Of a DNA stretch of 36,772 nucleotides, positions 1,727 through 34,963 are shown in pieces (the first letter of the stretch is position 1; each line of letters begins with the position of its first letter). The notes under the pieces were generated by a model, which was not told the DNA's origin, did not search any database, and was given only the letters and a program-made list of their open reading frames with translations. The position numbers and the translations under genes are program-made. The stretch is from a virus. Lineage: Duplodnaviria > Caudoviricetes. The stretch spans positions 1 through 36,772 of IMG/VR virus record IMGVR_UViG_3300025389_000049. One strand, 5' to 3'.

Positions 1727-1942
1727 ATGTTTAATATTGAATCAATCATCGACGCCGTTAAAGGTGCTCAAACATCTTTCGTAGAGACCTACGTTACAGA
1801 TAAAACCACACAAAAGAATCTAGTCAAGTTGCTTGACTCACAGGCCTCTTTTGCCAAGACCACTTATAAGAACAGCGTAGAGCTAGCTGAAACTGCTGTT
1901 AAGAATTTCAACGAAATCATCTACTCTAAAAAGGCAGCTTAA
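1727..1942 (+). CDS. 71-aa phasin-like amphipathic helical protein, paralog of 33528-33800
   Basis: Start moved to ATG after CACACAGGAG RBS; shared IDAV and D.Q....K motifs; phasin call from size and composition only. Confidence 0.6.
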   Translation: MFNIESIIDAVKGAQTSFVETYVTDKTTQKNLVKLLDSQASFAKTTYKNSVELAETAVKNFNEIIYSKKAA

Positions 1943-1944
1943 TC

Positions 1945-2211
1945 ATGACAATCGAAACACCAAAAATGCCAGAAGTTAAGTTTAGCAAGAACGGATATGA
2001 AATCCGTACAGACGTGTTAGCCATGGCCAAAGACGCTGTTATGGACGAATATCATATGAAGTTCAAAGGCTGGGAAATGTCAGTTGCTCGTGATGAGAAA
2101 ACTGGACAAGTTGTCAGCACAGTAGCCATGCCAGAGTTTCCAGGTTTGGAAAAGATCATGGAAGCCGCTGAAAAGTTCTATGGGTTCGTAAATACGGGCA
2201 CAAAGAAGTAA
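1945..2211 (+). CDS. Conserved hypothetical protein (KNGYEIR family), paralog of 32817-33098
   Basis: Extensive identity with second copy (PEVKF.KNGYEIR.D.LAMAKD...RDEKTGQ...MPEFPGLEK). Confidence 0.9.
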   Translation: MTIETPKMPEVKFSKNGYEIRTDVLAMAKDAVMDEYHMKFKGWEMSVARDEKTGQVVSTVAMPEFPGLEKIMEAAEKFYGFVNTGTKK

Positions 2212-2249: not shown

Positions 2250-2278
2250 CAAAAGGCCTTGACGGGCCTTTTGTTTTA
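2250..2278 (+). terminator. Rho-independent terminator
   Basis: CAAAAGGCC-ttgacg-GGCCTTTTG followed by T-rich tract. Confidence 0.75.
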
Positions 2279-2288
2279 GCTATATAAT
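2259..2288 (+). promoter_or_regulatory. sigma70-like promoter for the tRNA unit
   Basis: TTGACG-N18-TATAAT, ending 8 nt before the tRNA 5' end. Confidence 0.65.
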
Positions 2289-2296
2289 ATACACAT

Positions 2297-2371
2297 GCGC
2301 CTAAGGCTAAATGGTATAGCAAGGGTCTCTAAAGCCCGAGACAGCAGGTTCGATTCCTGTTAGGCGCACCA
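2297..2371 (+). tRNA. Amber suppressor tRNA, anticodon CUA
   Basis: Acceptor GCGCCTA/TAGGCGC, D stem GCTA/TAGC, anticodon stem (A)GGGT/GCCC(G) with loop CT-CTA-AA, T arm GCAGG-TTCGATT-CCTGT, A73 and encoded CCA. Confidence 0.85.
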
Positions 2372-2386
2372 TTTAAGGAAATTACT

Positions 2387-2530
2387 ATGTTTATCGGATT
2401 AATGGGTGTGGCCAGCGACGGTACGCTGTATACACCAAGCGGTAATAAAATTTGCAAAGTGCCTCAATGGGCGGTATGGCGCATTCAAAGAGCCCAGCAT
2501 TGGGTAGCCCAACTAACTTGGAGAAATTAA
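2387..2530 (+). CDS. 47-aa hypothetical protein (MFIGLMGVASDGTLYTPSGNKICKVPQW...)
   Basis: Hand-translated; AAGGA RBS; fills the gap after the tRNA. Confidence 0.7.
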   Translation: MFIGLMGVASDGTLYTPSGNKICKVPQWAVWRIQRAQHWVAQLTWRN

Positions 2531-2532
2531 AA

Positions 2533-3126
2533 ATGACACAATAGATCGAATATGCTTGTAAAGACCTAGTCTTCCACTTTAACAAGAAACATTTAGAAGA
2601 CGAGACCATTCCAATGTGGGTCATTAAAACACATGGAGAATCCTTTTACGTTAACCACGTAACAAGTCAGCTTAACTGGACAACTAAAGAAACTCCAGAC
2701 AACGAGCGCACCAAAGGCAGCATCAAGTTCAAAGAATGCCTACTAACCATAGATCCAGATAATAACGCAACTATCAGCACATTATCATTGTTTGATAAAG
2801 TACGACTTCGTAATCAAAAGCTGGGCATAACTCGCATTATGTTTACTGGCTATCAATTTGAAAAGGTATTAGCTGAACGTGGTATCAAACACAGTCCATT
2901 CAAACGTGTACACGGTGCTTGTAGTACTGCTTATACTGTTTGTGACTTACTGAACAAACGTCAGTTACCATTCTTACAAATTGAGTTCCCTGGCATGTTC
3001 CGTGTGCTAATGCCAAATGAACCTCAGTACAAGGCCTATGACGACAAGAAGCTTTGGACAGAGTTGCAGAACGAATATGATTTGGAAGAATATCCAGAGG
3101 ATGATGACGAAGAAGATGTCAACTAA
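2533..3126 (+). CDS. Hypothetical protein with in-frame amber codon at position 4 (MTQ*IEYACKDLVFHFNKKHLEDETIPMWV...)
   Basis: GGAG RBS before ATG 2533; TAG 2542-2544; frame open and continuous with track ORF 2614-3126, whose ATG has no clear RBS. Confidence 0.8.
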
Positions 3127-10071: not shown

Positions 10072-11274
10072 ATGATTAACAAAGAACCATTCGAACGACT
10101 TATACAAGAACTAAAAGAAAACGGCAAATATCGTGTGTTTAATGATATTGTGCGCGAAGCGGGTAAATTCCCTACTGCTATTTGGTATGGGCCTTATAAC
10201 ATTAAAAACATAGTTAATTGGTGTAGCAATGACTACTTGGGCATGGGCCAGCATAAAGTTGTATTAGATGCCATGCATACCGCATTGGATCATACAGGAT
10301 CAGGTTCAGGTGGTACACGTAACATTGGCGGAAGCAGTCATTATCACAAAGCACTAGAGCATGAAATTGCCACGCTACACAAAAAGGAAAGAGCTGTATT
10401 GTTTAGTTCAGCTTATGTAGCTAACGAATGGACACTAATTGCTCTAGCTAAGATTATTCCAAATATAGAGTTTATATCGGATGCTAACAATCACAATAGT
10501 ATTATTGTAGGAATACAACATAGTCGTGCAGACAAAGTCATATTCAAACATAACGATTTAGAAGATCTAGAACAAAAGTTAAAGATTAGTTTTGCACAAG
10601 GTAAAACTCCATGTATAGTATTTGAAAGCGTCTACAGTATGGATGGAGATATTAGCCCGATGGCAGAAATATGTAAGCTGGCTGAAAAATACAAAGCCAT
10701 TACCTATATTGATGAAGTTCATGCAGTAGGGTTGTATGGTAAAACTGGCGGCGGCAAAATTGAAGAACTCGGGCTTGAAGACAAGATAGACATAGTCAAT
10801 GGAACCTTGGGAAAAGCCTTTGGAGTACAAGGAGGCTACATTGCTTGCGATAGCATTGTGGCAGACGCTATTCGTAGTGTTGCCGCTGGTTTTATCTTTA
10901 CAACTAGTATGAGTCCTGTTAGTTGTGCTGGAGCACTAGCCGCAATCAAATATTTGAAAGATCATAACTGCATTAGAGACAAGCATCAGGAACGTGCTCG
11001 CAAACTTAAACATAGATTGAAGGTAGCAGGGATACCTGTAATGGAGTGTAGTACTAGTCACATTGTTCCTGTGCTAGTAGGAGATGCTAAAAAGTGTAAA
11101 GCTATGAGCGATGCATTGTTAAATGACTACAACATTTATGTGCAACCAATTAACTATCCTACAGTTGATGTGGGAACGGAGCGGTTGCGTTTTGCACCTA
11201 CTCCGTTTCACGATGATGGTATGATTGAAGACCTAGTTAATGCTTTAACTGATGTCTTTAAGCGTACATACTAA
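10072..11274 (+). CDS. hemA: 5-aminolevulinate synthase (PLP-dependent, Shemin pathway)
   Basis: [56 protein letters not shown] motifs. Confidence 0.95.
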
Positions 11275-14332: not shown

Positions 14333-14761
14333 TTAACGCAACCAGCCTACTTTTTTACCTTCAGCTATGCGATTATCATGATCTTCTTCACTTTTAGGAT
14401 AACGTAATGCCCACACACAAACAAAAAACATTAATAAGCCTGTGCCTAGTACTGCTTTCCAATTATGAGTAGTAAACCACATGATAATTAAACTTGAATC
14501 CATCATTAGGACCATAAACCAACGGGCCTTAACTGGAAACACACGTTTCTCTGCCCAGCCGCGAAGAAATGGACCAAAAATCTTATGATTCATGATCCAA
14601 TTGTGCATACGTTCAGATCCTTTGCTAAAACAGTAAGCGGCGCCTACTGTTGGAGTGCTAAAAGGAATACCGGGAGTTACTAGTCCTATGTAGGCTAACC
14701 CTAGGCATATAAAGCCTAGAGTCATCCACATTGCTTTTTTTACTTTAGAAATTGTAGCCAT
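14333..14761 (-). CDS. YbaN/DUF454 inner-membrane protein
   Basis: LG....LA.IG...PG.P........AAYCF.K.S.R.HNW..H..FGP.L..W pattern; TM segments. Confidence 0.85.
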   Translation of the reverse strand: MATISKVKKAMWMTLGFICLGLAYIGLVTPGIPFSTPTVGAAYCFSKGSERMHNWIMNHKIFGPFLRGWAEKRVFPVKARWFMVLMMDSSLIIMWFTTHNWKAVLGTGLLMFFVCVWALRYPKSEEDHDNRIAEGKKVGWLR

Positions 14762-15340: not shown

Positions 15341-15889
15341 TTACAGAAAGATGTTTTGGGCAAATTCTTGGGCACTTTGATCAATAGCATTGCACCATTG
15401 ATCATTATGATCGTTTCCAAAAACCAATTCTATATTACTAGCAGTAGTACACCAACTGTTTTCATGTTTGAATGGAGAGATTCCTTCTATCTCGCCTTTT
15501 AATTGTCCCGGAGCCCAGCCAGCAACTCCTAATATTATTCGCCATCGTTCAGGAAGATCTCCAGCAGCCATTCTTGCAATCATATCGTGACTACTGCTTA
15601 GACTAAACGAGTCATTGATGCGTAAAGTGTTATTGCAACTCCAATCATTAGTATGCAAAAAACTAAGACTCTTTGGGTTAACAGGGCCGCCAATATAAAC
15701 AAACCCGGGAAGATCTACAACAAATCCCATTTGTCTGGCAAAATCAACAACACTTATATTGCTACGTTTGTTAATGACTACGCCTACAGTCCCATGTGCA
15801 TGATCTTCTGTGACCATAATTACTGTTTTTTGCCAGAAGCTATTTTTAACAGCTGGCGGTGATATTAATAAATTTCCTACTAGATTCAT
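15341..15889 (-). CDS. YqgE/AlgH (DUF179) family protein
   Basis: F.KTVI...GTVGVVIN, GGPV, G.AGWAPGQL.GEI...W motifs. Confidence 0.9.
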   Translation of the reverse strand: MNLVGNLLISPPAVKNSFWQKTVIMVTEDHAHGTVGVVINKRSNISVVDFARQMGFVVDLPGFVYIGGPVNPKSLSFLHTNDWSCNNTLRINDSFSLSSSHDMIARMAAGDLPERWRIILGVAGWAPGQLKGEIEGISPFKHENSWCTTASNIELVFGNDHNDQWCNAIDQSAQEFAQNIFL

Positions 15890-23772: not shown

Positions 23773-23938
23773 TCATTATCCTTTTAATAATTTCTTGTGC
23801 CTCTGCAAACTCTTTGCGTTCGAGTTTAGCTTCGATTATCTTTTCATATTCTTCTCTAAGCTGGCGCATGTACGGCCGCATTTGCTCAGTAGGATATGGT
23901 TGTGTCCATTTGATAGTGTATAAGTGTTCACGTTTCAT
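23756..23938 (-). CDS. Hypothetical protein
   Basis: Coupled ORF. Confidence 0.7.
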   Translation of the reverse strand: MKREHLYTIKWTQPYPTEQMRPYMRQLREEYEKIIEAKLERKEFAEAQEIIKRIMNATRT

Positions 23939-24147
23939 TTTCTAATTCCGTACATAATGTAAATGCTGTTGCCTAAATCTTCAAGTGTTTTTTGAGCATC
24001 AATTTGAGCGTGAATGTCACGCACAATCAACTCGGCAAATTTTTCATCTCGGATACGTTGATAACGAACAATTTCTCTTAAGTCGGGTTCTATCGCCCTT
24101 GCAAGGTCGTCTGCTTGTCGGGCTAACAAATAAATTCGTTCGTTCAT
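23935..24147 (-). CDS. MNERI/KFAELIV family hypothetical protein
   Basis: Paralogous motifs with 26665-26919 and 26923-27165. Confidence 0.8.
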   Translation of the reverse strand: MNERIYLLARQADDLARAIEPDLREIVRYQRIRDEKFAELIVRDIHAQIDAQKTLEDLGNSIYIMYGIRK

Positions 24148-24704: not shown

Positions 24705-25011
24705 GCTCGTGCCCCCATTTGATCCACCAATAGGTATAGTTTTTGGGCGTAAGTTCTGCTCGAATTGAATAAGCATAACCAAGAGTATTGGGATCGGGAG
24801 CTCTATGCCAGCTAGGAGTTTGAACAGCATTATCCATTACCCATTTTCCCATTTCACTCGTTTGCCATTGCCAAAGTGGTTCACCTGCATATAGGTCTGG
24901 GTCTTCTACATCACCCATTCTAAATCTATGAACTACTACAGTCAATGGGCCGTGTTGCTCAATATGCTCCACAGTAGTAAAGTCTCCGTTTGGTAATGGC
25001 AATATAGTCAT
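24682..25011 (-). CDS. Hypothetical protein
   Basis: Coupled ORF; ends in TAG. Confidence 0.8.
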   Translation of the reverse strand: MTILPLPNGDFTTVEHIEQHGPLTVVVHRFRMGDVEDPDLYAGEPLWQWQTSEMGKWVMDNAVQTPSWHRAPDPNTLGYAYSIRAELTPKNYTYWWIKWGHELDAKSKL

Positions 25012-25820
25012 AAGGGCATATCAAATATAATCGGATCCTTACGTTCTACCTGTACTGGCTTTGGAGGCAAAGGTTGTGCTGTAATCAATTCGTTGGCTAT
25101 CTCACTACGCTGTTTAACATTCTTTTGTCCTAGCACAATGATACCATATTCCCTATGTTCTTTTTCAACTAGCATGACTACACAACGGCCTGCGGGATTG
25201 GTAAAGCCTGTCTTACTAATTAAAATGTTATCAAACTTAAAGATGCTAGGATTAGTATTGTGCAGTCTAACATGAATATATTTTTTACCTTTAGGTACAA
25301 AGATCTCTGCTGTCTTATCATCTGCATAGTTACGCAATGCTTGATTGCCTCTAATAGTTCCAATGAAACTAACTAGCTCTGAAGCTGTGCTTACATTGTT
25401 GCGACTTAGGCCTGTGGGCTCTTCGATGTATGTGTGTAGTAAGCCACGACCACGAATATAATCATTAGTATCTTCTATGAACTTGTTAAAGCCACCAGGA
25501 TACGTATTGGCCAGTGTTTCAGCCGCACGATTATCGCTAGAGATTAACATGGCCTGCATTAGATTATGTCTAGTAACCATCATGCCATTAGGGAAATGCC
25601 CTGAGCTCTTGCCTTGTACACGGACCTTTTCATCTAGTTCTACACCACTACGTAGGATTGTATTGGCTGTAAACAGTTTGCTGATACTGGCAATTGGACG
25701 TTGTTCATCTACATCATATGCAACTTGGTATTCACCGCGTTCGTAATCATACAAGGCAAAGCTACCTTGTTCAGCGTGTGCGGTTGCACAAAATAATAAG
25801 AGTAATAATAGTTTTTTCAT
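25008..25820 (-). CDS. Peptidase S11 D-Ala-D-Ala peptidase (PBP7/PbpG-like)
   Basis: Signal peptide; ASISK (SxxK), SDN (SxN), KTG motifs. Confidence 0.9.
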   Translation of the reverse strand: MKKLLLLLLFCATAHAEQGSFALYDYERGEYQVAYDVDEQRPIASISKLFTANTILRSGVELDEKVRVQGKSSGHFPNGMMVTRHNLMQAMLISSDNRAAETLANTYPGGFNKFIEDTNDYIRGRGLLHTYIEEPTGLSRNNVSTASELVSFIGTIRGNQALRNYADDKTAEIFVPKGKKYIHVRLHNTNPSIFKFDNILISKTGFTNPAGRCVVMLVEKEHREYGIIVLGQKNVKQRSEIANELITAQPLPPKPVQVERKDPIIFDMPL

Positions 25821-26110
25821 TCTGGCCACATCATCTTGTATATTGTGTGTAACTTTTCATCACGAAACATGAAGACAAATTGTCTATTAACACTGACTCC
25901 GCCTGATTGGAATGGCAACTCAGCACCAAACCATTTGCCAGCCCAAGCATCAGGATATAGTTGTGAATATCTAGGACCAAAGGTATCTCTACACCACATG
26001 GCACGCTCTCGGCATTCCATAACTGATAGATCAGTAATGTCATGTATCCAACCCTCTTGTTTGAGTTGCATAGCTAGTTGTATTTCTTCTCGTTCGTGTG
26101 TTATTGCCAT
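25817..26110 (-). CDS. Hypothetical protein
   Basis: WC..TFG...W...FRDE motif shared with neighbour. Confidence 0.75.
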   Translation of the reverse strand: MAITHEREEIQLAMQLKQEGWIHDITDLSVMECRERAMWCRDTFGPRYSQLYPDAWAGKWFGAELPFQSGGVSVNRQFVFMFRDEKLHTIYKMMWPE

Positions 26111-26309: not shown

Positions 26310-26668
26310 AACTCCAATAGTGTACAGTAATGCTGATAGGCTTTTTCCACAGCAGGATTGTTTAGTCTAACTACACGATCTCTTTCATATCTAGCCATTA
26401 GCTGGCGATCAGTTGTGTGTTTTTCTATTTCAGATTCTGCATATTTGATATAGTTGATAATAGTTTCTAATCTATCTTTGGGCATGAATATTTCTACGCA
26501 AGGCGCATCCTCTGCGTATACTTGTTGATATAGCACGTCGTCGGACATGGTAACATCCCATACATTTACCTGTGGTAATGTCGGTCGTCGTAGCCTACGC
26601 AATGTGCGATTGCTATCTCTAACATACATTTCCATTCGGTTGTAGAATTCTTGATTAGGATCTTTCAT
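26297..26668 (-). CDS. Hypothetical protein
   Basis: GGAG RBS supplied by the junction repeat. Confidence 0.8.
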   Translation of the reverse strand: MKDPNQEFYNRMEMYVRDSNRTLRRLRRPTLPQVNVWDVTMSDDVLYQQVYAEDAPCVEIFMPKDRLETIINYIKYAESEIEKHTTDRQLMARYERDRVVRLNNPAVEKAYQHYCTLLELCRT

Positions 26669-26919
26669 TCTTCAACTCCGTAAGATTCTTTAATGGCGTC
26701 AATCATTTTTTCACAAGCACGGTCATACCCAATAACATAATGTGTATCAGTTGCTGGTTTTCCTCTAACCTCAAAGGCAATGTCTAAACAGTCTCTGACA
26801 ATCAACTCGGCGAACTTGTTGAATGTTTCTTCGGTGCTGACAAAGTAGTTGATACCATTACCAAACTCAGCAGATCCTACTTGTGCCTTTTGAGCAAGTT
26901 CCCTAATCCGTTCATTCAT
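26665..26919 (-). CDS. MNERI/KFAELIV family hypothetical protein
   Basis: MNERI...KFAELIVRD...YGVEE. Confidence 0.85.
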   Translation of the reverse strand: MNERIRELAQKAQVGSAEFGNGINYFVSTEETFNKFAELIVRDCLDIAFEVRGKPATDTHYVIGYDRACEKMIDAIKESYGVEE

Positions 26920-26922
26920 TCT

Positions 26923-27165
26923 TCAACTCCTGGGAAATCTTGTAAACCCATAGTTTTTCAAAACTTCTCGGGTAACATCAATCTCTGGATCAATGCCTTG
27001 TGTTTGATATGCCTTTGTTAGACGACTAAATTCAGCAACTTGGTCTAATGTATCACGCACAATCAACTCGGCAAACTTTACAGGATCCAACTCACCTGCC
27101 ACGTAGTCGCCATTGCCTTCTAAAATGGTTGCTTGGTCATATAGTTTTGCGATTCGTTCGTTCAT
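26923..27165 (-). CDS. MNERI/KFAELIV family hypothetical protein
   Basis: AGGAG RBS; MNERI...KFAELIVRD; GVEE tail now out of frame. Confidence 0.85.
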   Translation of the reverse strand: MNERIAKLYDQATILEGNGDYVAGELDPVKFAELIVRDTLDQVAEFSRLTKAYQTQGIDPEIDVTREVLKNYGFTRFPRS

Positions 27166-32816: not shown

Positions 32817-33098
32817 TTACTTTTTAGATGACTGAGTTGTTTGGTTTACAAACTCATACATTTTCTGAGCGGTTTCAAGAACCTTTTCAAGACCCGGGAA
32901 CTCGGGCATACCAACCGTAGTAACATATTGACCAGTCTTCTCGTCACGTTTTGCTGTTAGTTCCCATCCAGCAAACTTAGTTGAATATTCTTGCTGTACC
33001 ATATCCTTAGCCATTGCTAAAATGTCAGCACGAATCTCGTAGCCATTTTTGTTAAACTTTACTTCTGGCACTTTTGGTGCCCAATCTTTATCGCTCAT
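32817..33098 (-). CDS. KNGYEIR family protein, paralog of 1945-2211
   Basis: Start moved to MSDKDW after AAGGA RBS. Confidence 0.9.
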   Translation of the reverse strand: MSDKDWAPKVPEVKFNKNGYEIRADILAMAKDMVQQEYSTKFAGWELTAKRDEKTGQYVTTVGMPEFPGLEKVLETAQKMYEFVNQTTQSSKK

Positions 33099-33099
33099 T

Positions 33100-33192
33100 T
33101 TACTTCCTTTTATAAGTATTGTACTCGTCAACCATAACAAGTGCCATTGGCACAACGATATTAGTAACGCATAGTAAGCCAAGAACAGCCAT
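33100..33192 (-). CDS. 30-aa hydrophobic micro-protein (MAVLGLLCVTNIVVPMALVMV...)
   Basis: GAGGAG RBS; abuts both neighbours. Confidence 0.6.
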   Translation of the reverse strand: MAVLGLLCVTNIVVPMALVMVDEYNTYKRK

Positions 33193-33288
33193 TTATTTCT
33201 CCTCTAGTTGCTTGGGTTGTTGTTTGGGAGGATTGTTTAGATACTCCCATTCTTCATCAGTATAAGGCCACCAATTCAATTTATTCAT
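33193..33288 (-). CDS. 31-aa micro-protein (MNKLNWWPYTDEEWEYLNNPPKQQ...), paralog of 508-585
   Basis: GAGGT RBS; shared motif. Confidence 0.75.
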   Translation of the reverse strand: MNKLNWWPYTDEEWEYLNNPPKQQPKQLEEK

Positions 33289-33365
33289 GGATGTACCTCA
33301 TACTGTTCCTTTGACCATTCAATGATATATCGAATGGCTTGATAGAATTCATATAAATTGTACAT
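33285..33365 (-). CDS. 26-aa micro-protein (MYNLYEFYQAIRYIIEWSKEQYEVHP)
   Basis: ATGA overlap; positional equivalent of 315-416. Confidence 0.55.
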   Translation of the reverse strand: MYNLYEFYQAIRYIIEWSKEQYEVHP

Positions 33366-33368
33366 AAT

Positions 33369-33524
33369 TTATACCATTCTATTAAAGGTCATTTTATTAT
33401 TGAATTCACGTGTTAGAACTTCAACATCAGCCGCAGTCTGTGGATTACGACTATTGATATAATCTTCTAACGCTGAATATTTGCTGTCAAATATTGACAC
33501 TAAAAAATCTATGATTTTATTCAT
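33369..33524 (-). CDS. 51-aa protein, paralog of 160-318
   Basis: SALEDYINSRNPQTAADVEVLTREF; AAGGGG RBS. Confidence 0.85.
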   Translation of the reverse strand: MNKIIDFLVSIFDSKYSALEDYINSRNPQTAADVEVLTREFNNKMTFNRMV

Positions 33525-33527
33525 TGC

Positions 33528-33800
33528 TTACCCCTTTACAGGTAAGAATGCTTTCATTTGTGATTGAATAGCATCAAATGACTTTTGATAAAAAGACTTA
33601 TCCATCAATAGATCGCCAATGTCAGTGCCAACTTTAACTGTGGCATCAAAGGCTTCTTTGGTGTAGGTAGTTTGCAAGTCTACAAACTTGTTAAGTGCTT
33701 TTGCTAATTCTGGGCTAGTTTTTTCTAATGTGGCATCAACTGCCAATTTCTTAGATGTTTGAACCGCATCAATGGCGGTATGTGCGATAGTTTTGAACAT
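33528..33800 (-). CDS. Phasin-like protein, paralog of 1727-1942
   Basis: ACACAGGAG RBS; IDAVQ...FVDLQTTYTK. Confidence 0.6.
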   Translation of the reverse strand: MFKTIAHTAIDAVQTSKKLAVDATLEKTSPELAKALNKFVDLQTTYTKEAFDATVKVGTDIGDLLMDKSFYQKSFDAIQSQMKAFLPVKG

Positions 33801-34381: not shown

Positions 34382-34546
34382 TTATCCACCACGGCCTGTT
34401 CTACGTACTACATTGGCTCCACCAAAGCCCTTGCTTGCTTTGGGAACAGGTTTGCCACCTGCTTGGTTGATTTGAAATACTTGTTTTGCTTTTTTCTTTG
34501 CAAGAATTTCTGCTATTGGGTTTGGTTTGCTTTCTTTCTTATCCAT
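34382..34546 (-). CDS. 54-aa basic protein ending RRTGRGG
   Basis: Hand-translated; AGGAG RBS. Confidence 0.75.
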   Translation of the reverse strand: MDKKESKPNPIAEILAKKKAKQVFQINQAGGKPVPKASKGFGGANVVRRTGRGG

Positions 34547-34555
34547 GATATACTC

Positions 34556-34963
34556 CTATCTGATAGAATTTAAATAGTCTCTTATGTTGCCGTATAATGT
34601 TACAACCATTGCAATTTTACTGTCAAAGATTCTAACATAAGGACCTTTTTTGTCCCCATCTTTATTTACACCCAAATAAAATGGGCACTTAATTTTCTTA
34701 GATAGTTCATGTGTAATCAATTCTGGTTTTAAGAACTTATCTTTTTTGTTCCATAAACTTCCCAGTGGGAATTCATAATATTCAATCTTTGCTTGAACAA
34801 AGGCACCGATCCCCTCTTCAGATAATCGTAATCCTTCACCACCTCTGCCTGTGACCCACCAACGAAAAACCACATCATCTAAAGGCAATTCATGCCAAGA
34901 CGTATGTGGTAGTTCGGCCAATATGGCTTTAGTGATTTGGTGTTTAGATTTGTGATAAGTCAT
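34556..34963 (-). CDS. Hypothetical protein
   Basis: Operon ORF; ends in TAG in frame with the next gene. Confidence 0.8.
   Translation of the reverse strand: MTYHKSKHQITKAILAELPHTSWHELPLDDVVFRWWVTGRGGEGLRLSEEGIGAFVQAKIEYYEFPLGSLWNKKDKFLKPELITHELSKKIKCPFYLGVNKDGDKKGPYVRIFDSKIAMVVTLYGNIRDYLNSIR

Follow-up and report, generated by a model that had tools for sequence, protein, structure and literature searches.

An in-frame amber codon and a phage-encoded tRNA(CUA) as a probable gate on a small phage gene

The locus

The window, meaning the whole stretch of DNA that was analysed (36,772 nt), is the whole of a 36.8-kb virus record (IMGVR_UViG_3300025389_000049) that is present in freshwater metagenomes and belongs to a phage with relatives whose genomes reach 330–374 kb. 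A tRNA gene with anticodon CUA is followed on the same strand by a short open reading frame (ORF) and by a gene whose frame is interrupted by TAG at its fourth codon (Table 1). This gene reads ATG, ACA, CAA and TAG and then continues through 193 open codons to TAA at 3124–3126; the original prediction of GGAG, nine nucleotides, ATG ACA CAA TAG and an open frame beyond was thus confirmed, with 197 codons in all. The internal ATG at 2614 lies 27 codons into the frame and, as had been claimed, has no Shine-Dalgarno (SD)-like motif upstream. A start at this position would drop the first strand and helix of the protein, including a conserved FHFNK motif.

Left out of the earlier account was the 47-codon ORF between tRNA and gene, which stops 2 nt before the ATG at 2533 and contains the SD-like motif of the downstream gene; this stretch matched only 7 loci. 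No terminator-like site was found in the window between the tRNA and the gene. By search, 3 sigma-70-like sites were found against 3.2 expected in shuffled sequence, and boxes similar to those upstream of the window tRNA precede many related tRNAs in relatives.

Assembly error at the TAG was ruled out by four further runs without a variant. Contigs of all four runs that were not marked as possible sources carried no alternative letter at 2542–2544 or in the anticodon, pieces from three of these runs span the TAG, and the CAG or AAG at 2542 that the original prediction named as a sign of error was not seen. Three RNA runs, in which only 4% of words were shared, were excluded as evidence.

Table 1. 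Features of the tRNA-gene locus (window coordinates)
Feature	Position	Strand	Basis
Terminator-like hairpin closing the upstream genes, overlapping the -35 box	2250..2273	+	1 found vs 0.7 expected in shuffles, weak alone
Sigma-70-like promoter, 11/12 consensus matches, 18-nt spacer, ending 8 nt 5' of the tRNA	2259..2288	+	Position; similar boxes
Amber suppressor-type tRNA, anticodon CUA (2329-2331)	2297..2371	+	ARAGORN, Rfam RF00005, folding
47-codon ORF with its own SD-like motif, Trp-rich	2387..2530	+	Between tRNA and gated gene
SD-like GGAG, 9 nt 5' of ATG 2533	2520..2523	+	Sequence
Probable amber-gated gene; 197 codons on read-through, fMet-Thr-Gln on termination	2533..3126	+	Reading frame, homologs
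In-frame TAG (probable gate), codon 4, +4 = A	2542..2544	+	Sequence; TAG in 154/154 self-gated homolog regions
N-terminal all-beta domain with FHFNK motif	2545..2790	+	Predicted structure, homologs
Internal ATG, the gene callers' choice	2614..2616	+	Sequence, model
C-terminal ferredoxin-like (ACT/RRM-like) domain, then acidic tail	2818..3054	+	Predicted structure

The suppressor-type tRNA

The complete cloverleaf with a CUA anticodon that had been read from the sequence was also called by ARAGORN, and both Rfam and folding agree with it. It scored 61.6 bits with RF00005 against a cut-off of 29, and its minimum free energy of -27.1 kcal/mol (z -2.83) was equalled by 1 of 200 shuffles. The CCA end is encoded, the anticodon loop has 7 nt and the variable arm is short. 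Its ends carry G1-C72, C2-G71, G3-C70 and A73, and the anticodon stem contains an A27.G43 mismatch as well as a U31.G39 wobble. For comparison, 136 distinct CUA tRNAs were collected with relaxed ARAGORN, a set that includes a few false calls; within it, G1-C72 is found in 127, C2-G71 in 113 and A73 in 122. The 31:39 pair is non-Watson-Crick in 99 of the 136 CUA tRNAs versus 52 of 512 other short-arm tRNAs, and this loose pair may reflect tuning toward weak suppression.

The nearest isotypes of the 136 tRNAs are scattered (Arg 35, Met 30, Val 16, Trp 16), and the inserted amino acid therefore cannot be read from the tRNA sequence; the window tRNA also lacks the U1-A72 pair, which 20 of 28 phage tRNA-Gln have. 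tRNA-Pyl has one base linking the acceptor and D stems, lacks G18G19, and carries a 3-nt variable loop, a 6-bp anticodon stem and G73. Identity with tRNA-Pyl was ruled out by the two linker bases, the GG in the D loop, the normal variable loop and A73 of the window tRNA, and the 'Pyl' label given by ARAGORN and GenBank derives from the anticodon. Initiation at UAG by the CUA tRNA was likewise ruled out: its 1:72 position is paired, and SD spacing in relatives varies less when measured to the ATG (sd 1.6 nt) than to the TAG (sd 3.7 nt).

In a cell-free screen with E. coli enzymes, according to the published account, 90 of 162 phage CUA tRNAs were active and 42 of 162 stayed near background (PMC12636597). 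CUA tRNAs with odd D or T arms escape ARAGORN at default settings (L032:3834-3908; also L002 and L034-L036), and the apparent absence of a CUA tRNA from L002, L032 and L034-L036 was ruled out as a series of such misses. Counts of suppressor tRNAs in phage surveys are probably too low.

Conservation of the in-frame TAG

A word-indexed search returned 1192 relatives of the window protein. At the DNA level, 306 loci with the domain motif yielded 179 distinct gate regions, with 21 of 327 loci lacking the motif, whole-genome stretches and L372-L386 omitted from the counts. The gene itself carries an in-frame stop within codons 2-10 ("self-gated") in 154 of the 179 regions, always TAG and never TAA or TGA; clustering at 90% identity leaves 100 clusters, 79 of them self-gated. 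Homologs do not all start at MWV, the sequence at the internal methionine. The +4 base after the gate TAG is A in 135 of 149 regions, and true TAG stops show no such A bias (A 7, C 8, G 3, T 7). Across the 23 codons after TAG, 480 synonymous versus 126 non-synonymous differences were counted in 58 segments, a sample that is motif-selected and hence biased.

The co-occurrence of TAG and tRNA that had been anticipated was found in relatives. A CUA tRNA flanks 134 of the 154 self-gated regions and 106 of the 121 with at least 2.9 kb on each side. The 20 gated regions without one include 15 with long flanks, and in genomes without a nearby CUA tRNA a genome-wide pattern match was obtained in 5 of 5 checked, one of them doubtful. 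Phages infecting Rhizobium, Sinorhizobium, Tenacibaculum and Mycobacterium all retain the gate. In the cultured Rhizobium phage RHph_I1_18, a short form of the gene lacks annotation; its TAG is codon 6, and the tRNA follows directly downstream. Many database homologs are annotated from an internal Met. Others have Q where the DNA of related loci reads TAG, and this Q is probably the product of code-15 gene calls.

Other layouts of the control

A script classed 25 of the 179 regions as not self-gated, and 23 of these have a stop gate upstream, located in the peptidyl-tRNA hydrolase (Pth2) gene of the operon (19), in a leader (3) or in an inserted gene (1). The two remaining regions are L176, which is probably self-gated, and L218. 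In 13 regions the gene follows a Pth2 gene with a stop at its own codon 3-4, which is TAG wherever the codon is known (all but L224); the gated Pth2 neighbours of L223, L225, L227 and L228 match PTH2 (PF01981) at 29.6-34 bits against 23. Of 7 fusions of the beta domain to a preceding helical domain, 6 have a gated Pth2 gene two genes upstream. The read-through frame of the amber leaders L232:5885-5983, L255:5897-6004 and L365:1808-1927 crosses a terminator-like hairpin before an ungated gene; the pattern of a leader-peptide attenuator, a translated leader overlapping a terminator, is thus present in these three and absent from the window. In L370, the gated 5' end is retained on an inserted ORF that is endonuclease-like by sequence reading. 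Since stop control persists upstream where the gene lacks TAG, it is the dependence on read-through that is conserved, and not a residue.

Codon and anticodon also change together. Within the fusion group, Phosso and G013 combine a TAG gate with a CUA tRNA, and no UCA tRNA was found in them; Atu_ph07, G014 and G015 combine a TGA gate with a short-arm UCA tRNA, and no CUA tRNA was found in them, G015 being 68% complete. These five jumbo phages are kin, and in a poorly resolved tree the co-switch may represent one or two changes only. TGA-gated Pth2 genes were noted at L040:2932-3381 (Atu_ph07), L219 and L220, and the UCA tRNAs L372, L376 and L377 are labelled SeC by ARAGORN. Judged by sequence, the TGA-gated Pth2 with its UCA tRNA is likely an opal version of the amber gate.

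A TAG immediately 5' of the Pth2 match, with a CUA tRNA no more than 3 kb away, was also seen in Bxz1, Myrna, pT24 and two huge-phage records. For Bxz1 gp154 (L336:3980-4360), Myrna gp84 (L337:1983-2345) and pT24 BPT24_235 (L338:2962-3915) the tRNA lies 0.1-2.5 kb from Pth2, and a start codon plus TAG sits just upstream of the annotated start or match. No TAG/CUA tRNA pattern was found at the Pth2 match of Xoo-sp13, and gating was not seen in the Pth2 genes of G010, G011 and RHph_I1_18. As a separate observation, in the Pth2-like gene at L237:5517-5999 a start-TAG segment is followed by a second one in the same frame, which may make a double gate.

The RF1-type neighbour

In one lineage, a short RF1-type gene with PxT and GGQ motifs (for example L225:2148-2848) lies 1.3-3.7 kb 5' of the tRNA. 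Its frame is broken in all 18 loci (L344-L361), by a +1 shift at CTT-TAG in 5, by an in-frame TGA in 12 and by both in 1, a count that treats in-frame TGA as a stop. The TGA occupies one or two fixed positions, and the frame joined across the CTT-TAG +1 site aligns with homologs without a gap (5 loci). We take this site to mirror the CTT-TGA of prfB. A CUA tRNA accompanies 11 of the 18 loci and a TAG-gated Pth2 lies downstream in 12; furthermore, the L121 contig, with the long gated form, also carries a TGA-interrupted RF1-type gene (L360). In the lineage of the window, no Pth2 was found by Pfam in G005, G008 and G009 or by tblastn in G001, G004 and the window, and no RF1-type gene was found, G004 holding only a short GGQ-domain ORF. 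With neither found in the near-complete genomes of the window's own lineage, the link to translation rescue is one of guilt by association, drawn from other lineages.

The protein

The AlphaFold model of the window protein comprises two confident domains (pLDDT 87), and the beta domain alone reaches pLDDT 96. The beta domain can stand by itself, be paired with the ACT-like domain, follow a helical domain or be fused behind Pth2. The natural Pth2-beta fusion P0228 aligns to the L223 Pth2 (E 5e-16) and not to the Phosso Pth2; its DNA was looked for and not found. A complex of Pth2 and beta domain predicted for the L223 pair scored 0.14 against a mark of 0.32.

The window protein had no match in Pfam (including PTH2, PF01981), PHROGs or NCBIfam, no relative among PDB sequences (best E 0.17) and no usable match in an Atlas search. 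Neither the whole model nor the beta domain had a Foldseek match in the PDB at E<=0.001, and BFVD matches are uncharacterised phage proteins. An OB-like or ADP-ribosyltransferase fold was not accepted for the beta domain, with a best Z of 3.3 in VIA and tied rows. For the C-terminal domain, the best match is the regulatory subunit of AHAS (Z 5.9, rmsd 3.6, 76 aligned), which is a common arrangement; ACT domains rank at the top, with RRM and other ferredoxin-like folds close behind and no Pfam match.

Genetic code and further observations in the window

The 903-, 797- and 602-aa ORFs of the window are open under code 11, and TAG terminates 5 of 66 hand-picked genes (1630, 24682, 34556, 35464, 36211), the same positions from which it had first been argued that the code is not code 15 throughout. 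A scan for an SD, an ATG, an early stop and a long ORF gave a single candidate in the window, the gene at 2533, and, in G001 and G004, one convincing early-TAG gene each; the search for further such genes thus found none in the window by a scan that is crude and overlooked a known gate in W03. Real TAG stops persist, and code 15 is therefore excluded: a TAG-recoded phage was ruled out by the long code-11 ORFs, the genes ending in TAG and the single early-TAG candidate in this 37-kb fragment.

Several features of the window were noted independently of the locus. At 34382-34963 (-), a 135-aa gene ends in TAG and is followed after three codons by a 54-aa basic ORF in frame, and read-through would fuse the two; no homolog was found in G001, G004 or W03. 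Similar gene sets occupy 1727-2211 (+) and 32817-33800 (-), each with a KFxKNGYEIR protein and a small helical protein that is presumably phasin-like; a third small gene (160-318) resembles 33369-33524, in an apparent duplicated cassette. Host-like genes encode a class I/II aminotransferase, ALA-synthase-like by sequence reading (10072-11274, +), an AlgH-like DUF179 protein (15341-15889, -), a D-Ala-D-Ala carboxypeptidase S11 (25008-25829, -) and a DUF454 protein (14333-14761, -). Three short genes (23935-24147, 26665-26919 and 26923-27165, all -) start with MNERI, and several genes are preceded by nearly the same SD context (CGGAGTTGAAGA or similar), which suggests a repeated gene family or start cassette. 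Outside the window, permuted tmRNA genes occur near the module in L007, L008, L014 and L021 and at W03:15429-15752.

Interpretation and alternatives

Conservation of the TAG, co-occurrence of the tRNA, protein-level conservation from TAG to the internal ATG and the joint change of codon and anticodon all support the local switch, dependent on the phage tRNA, that was originally proposed. From these patterns, the UAG at codon 4 is very probably a programmed read-through gate that needs the phage tRNA, a reading that takes in the start at 2533 and charging of the tRNA. In the mechanism proposed here, a single transcript from the promoter at 2259-2288 would carry the tRNA, the 47-codon ORF and the gated gene, and ribosomes would start at ATG 2533 and mostly release fMet-Thr-Gln through RF1. 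A host synthetase would charge the tRNA with an ordinary amino acid, and its insertion at UAG would yield the 197-residue protein. U35 suppressors usually default to Lys or Gln. The loose 31:39 pair would keep suppression low, allowing true UAG stops to survive, and output would rise with the ratio of charged tRNA to free RF1. Together with Pth2, the beta domain would then help to recycle peptidyl-tRNA or ribosomes.

Because the other gated products are Pth2 and a release factor, a termination gauge feeding rescue is favoured. That the gate is a termination sensor, switching on a translation-rescue helper when termination is weak, appears to stand at about even chances or slightly above. The broadest form of this reading is put forward tentatively, as possible and somewhat short of probable: in large phages of several bacterial phyla, a weak self-encoded suppressor tRNA would couple the release-factor capacity of the host to a small rescue set of Pth2, an RF1-type factor with a CUU-UAG shift and the new-fold protein, through a gauge that would have taken the form of in-frame stops, of coupled operons and of attenuating leaders and have been shifted in its tuning from UAG/RF1 to UGA/RF2.

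The same gate may instead be a timer or dose limiter, which would allow protein only after the tRNA has been cut out, modified, charged and accumulated, with no sensing of the host; low output would make sense for a product that is harmful in excess or too early. The tRNA and gene are usually neighbours on one strand (tRNA upstream in 115 of 129, within 500 nt in 81), the anticodon stem is loose, and stop recoding has been proposed as a timing device (10.1101/2021.08.26.457843), all of which suit this explanation. However, a weak ribosome-binding site or a late promoter would be a cheaper route to the same effect, and gates on Pth2 and beside stop-interrupted release-factor genes point to termination as the measured variable. 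A timer or dose limiter is therefore rated unlikely, with an appreciable share of the probability nonetheless.

It is less likely again that the gate acts as a sentinel, closing when a host anticodon nuclease cleaves the tRNA or when the tRNA is uncharged, such that the gene is on only with healthy translation. This behaviour follows from the layout, the module often lies within tRNA clusters, and in Atu_ph07 it sits downstream of an RNA ligase gene. Yet Pth2, the best-known gated product, would be needed more when tRNAs are damaged, given the role described for Pth (PMC8012679).

An incipient or relic genome-wide reassignment of TAG, or a selfish pair in which TAG merely prevents loss of the tRNA, is improbable to a degree that leaves it little weight. 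TAG is the rarest stop among long SD-led ORFs (9/164 in G001, 4/135 in G004, 11/95 in W03), as in the route to recoding proposed by Borges et al. (10.1101/2021.08.26.457843). Against this stand the crude scan, which found a single convincing early-TAG gene in each of G001 and G004, and a gate that keeps to codons 2-10, has passed between genes and leaders and changes to TGA along with its tRNA. In addition, a single point mutation would free the gene, yet 0 of 172 non-fused regions are free of an in-frame or upstream stop gate. The incipient reassignment that the original prediction had entertained thus fits poorly with a gate limited to one or two genes, kept in diverse phages and shifting between layouts.

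Very little probability attaches to UAG being the true stop of a mini-ORF, with restart at AUU/AUC immediately after it or at ATG 2614 and the tRNA as a bystander. The codon after TAG (n=149) is ATT in 100 regions, ATC in 15, GTA in 7, ATA in 5, AAT in 5, AAC in 4 and others in 13; ATH in 120 of 149, together with GTG directly after TAG in the Bxz1 and Myrna Pth2, would suit reinitiation. Elsewhere, however, TAG is followed by non-start codons (AAT, AAC, ACT, AAA, CAA, CCC), TAA never occurs as the stop, every mini-ORF lies in frame, the gate codon tracks the anticodon, and a start at ATG 2614 would cut the conserved motif. Scarcely credible is a special, pyrrolysine-like residue needed by the protein, for which the 'Pyl' label speaks, since the codon precedes the folded domain at a variable distance, also turns up in unrelated proteins and in leaders that are not conserved, and is missing from the protein itself in 24 regions, and since the tRNA lacks the features of tRNA-Pyl.

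Comparison with known systems

In the autoregulation of RF2 (prfB), an early in-frame stop at CUU-UGA ties output to weak termination. The likeness is that output follows weak termination, and a CUU-UAG +1 site is found in the RF1-type neighbour of relatives; the window gene differs in staying in one frame, in needing a tRNA and not a shift, and in having no RF domain, and frameshift autoregulation of the RF2 type was ruled out for it on these grounds.

Code 15 and code 4 phages use their own suppressor tRNA to read in-frame stops in a standard-code host, and a regulatory role has been proposed (Borges et al., 10.1101/2021.08.26.457843). The present gate shares with them a phage suppressor tRNA reading in-frame stops. 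In the recoded phages, as there described, many structural and lysis genes are recoded, whereas here one near-start codon in one or two genes is involved, TAG still ends other genes, and the control also takes the form of leaders (10.1101/2021.08.26.457843, PMC13037316). The code-11 jumbo phage XacN1 encodes CUA tRNAs and a peptidyl-tRNA hydrolase gene, and its authors tried read-through of annotated gene ends and, as far as the available account goes, found no target (PMC5852040). Gates near the 5' end would escape such an approach.

In Streptomyces and its phages, the bldA tRNA and the rare codon UUA gate expression, both in coding regions and in short upstream ORFs (PMC10732093). Both systems rest on one rare codon and its tRNA, but UUA has a sense meaning and its tRNA comes from the host, while here a stop codon, a competing release factor and a phage tRNA are involved. 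A synthetic AND gate, in which output needs both an amber T7 polymerase mRNA and the supD suppressor tRNA (PMC1964800), is engineered and uses two separate promoters; the present arrangement is natural and usually forms one operon. Finally, the lambda bar minigenes, messages with a start and then an early stop, are described as causing peptidyl-tRNA drop-off that is cleared by Pth (PMC8012679). A closed gate amounts to such a minigene; unlike it, bar ends in UAA and has no read-through product and no suppressor.

A literature search, with most subscription journals outside its reach, found no description of such a gate. As read from sequence, the gate is a widespread form of codon-gated control that belongs to none of the bldA, RF2 and supD systems.

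Significance

The gate offers a target for the suppressor tRNAs of standard-code phages, which was sought without success in XacN1 according to the published account (PMC5852040). It presents stop codons as regulatory devices of single genes, apart from genome-wide recoding, and recoding may start from such a state. It also marks an annotation blind spot, as databases carry a truncated version of the gene and RHph_I1_18 has no annotation for it. Furthermore, it yields a large family of natural suppressor-type tRNAs and a domain without a clear fold match, and it occurs in the cultured phages Bxz1, Myrna, Phosso and RHph_I1_18, all of which grow on laboratory hosts (M. smegmatis for Bxz1 and Myrna). 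If the gauge reading is true, the window protein would represent a new rescue factor whose ACT-like domain senses amino acids.
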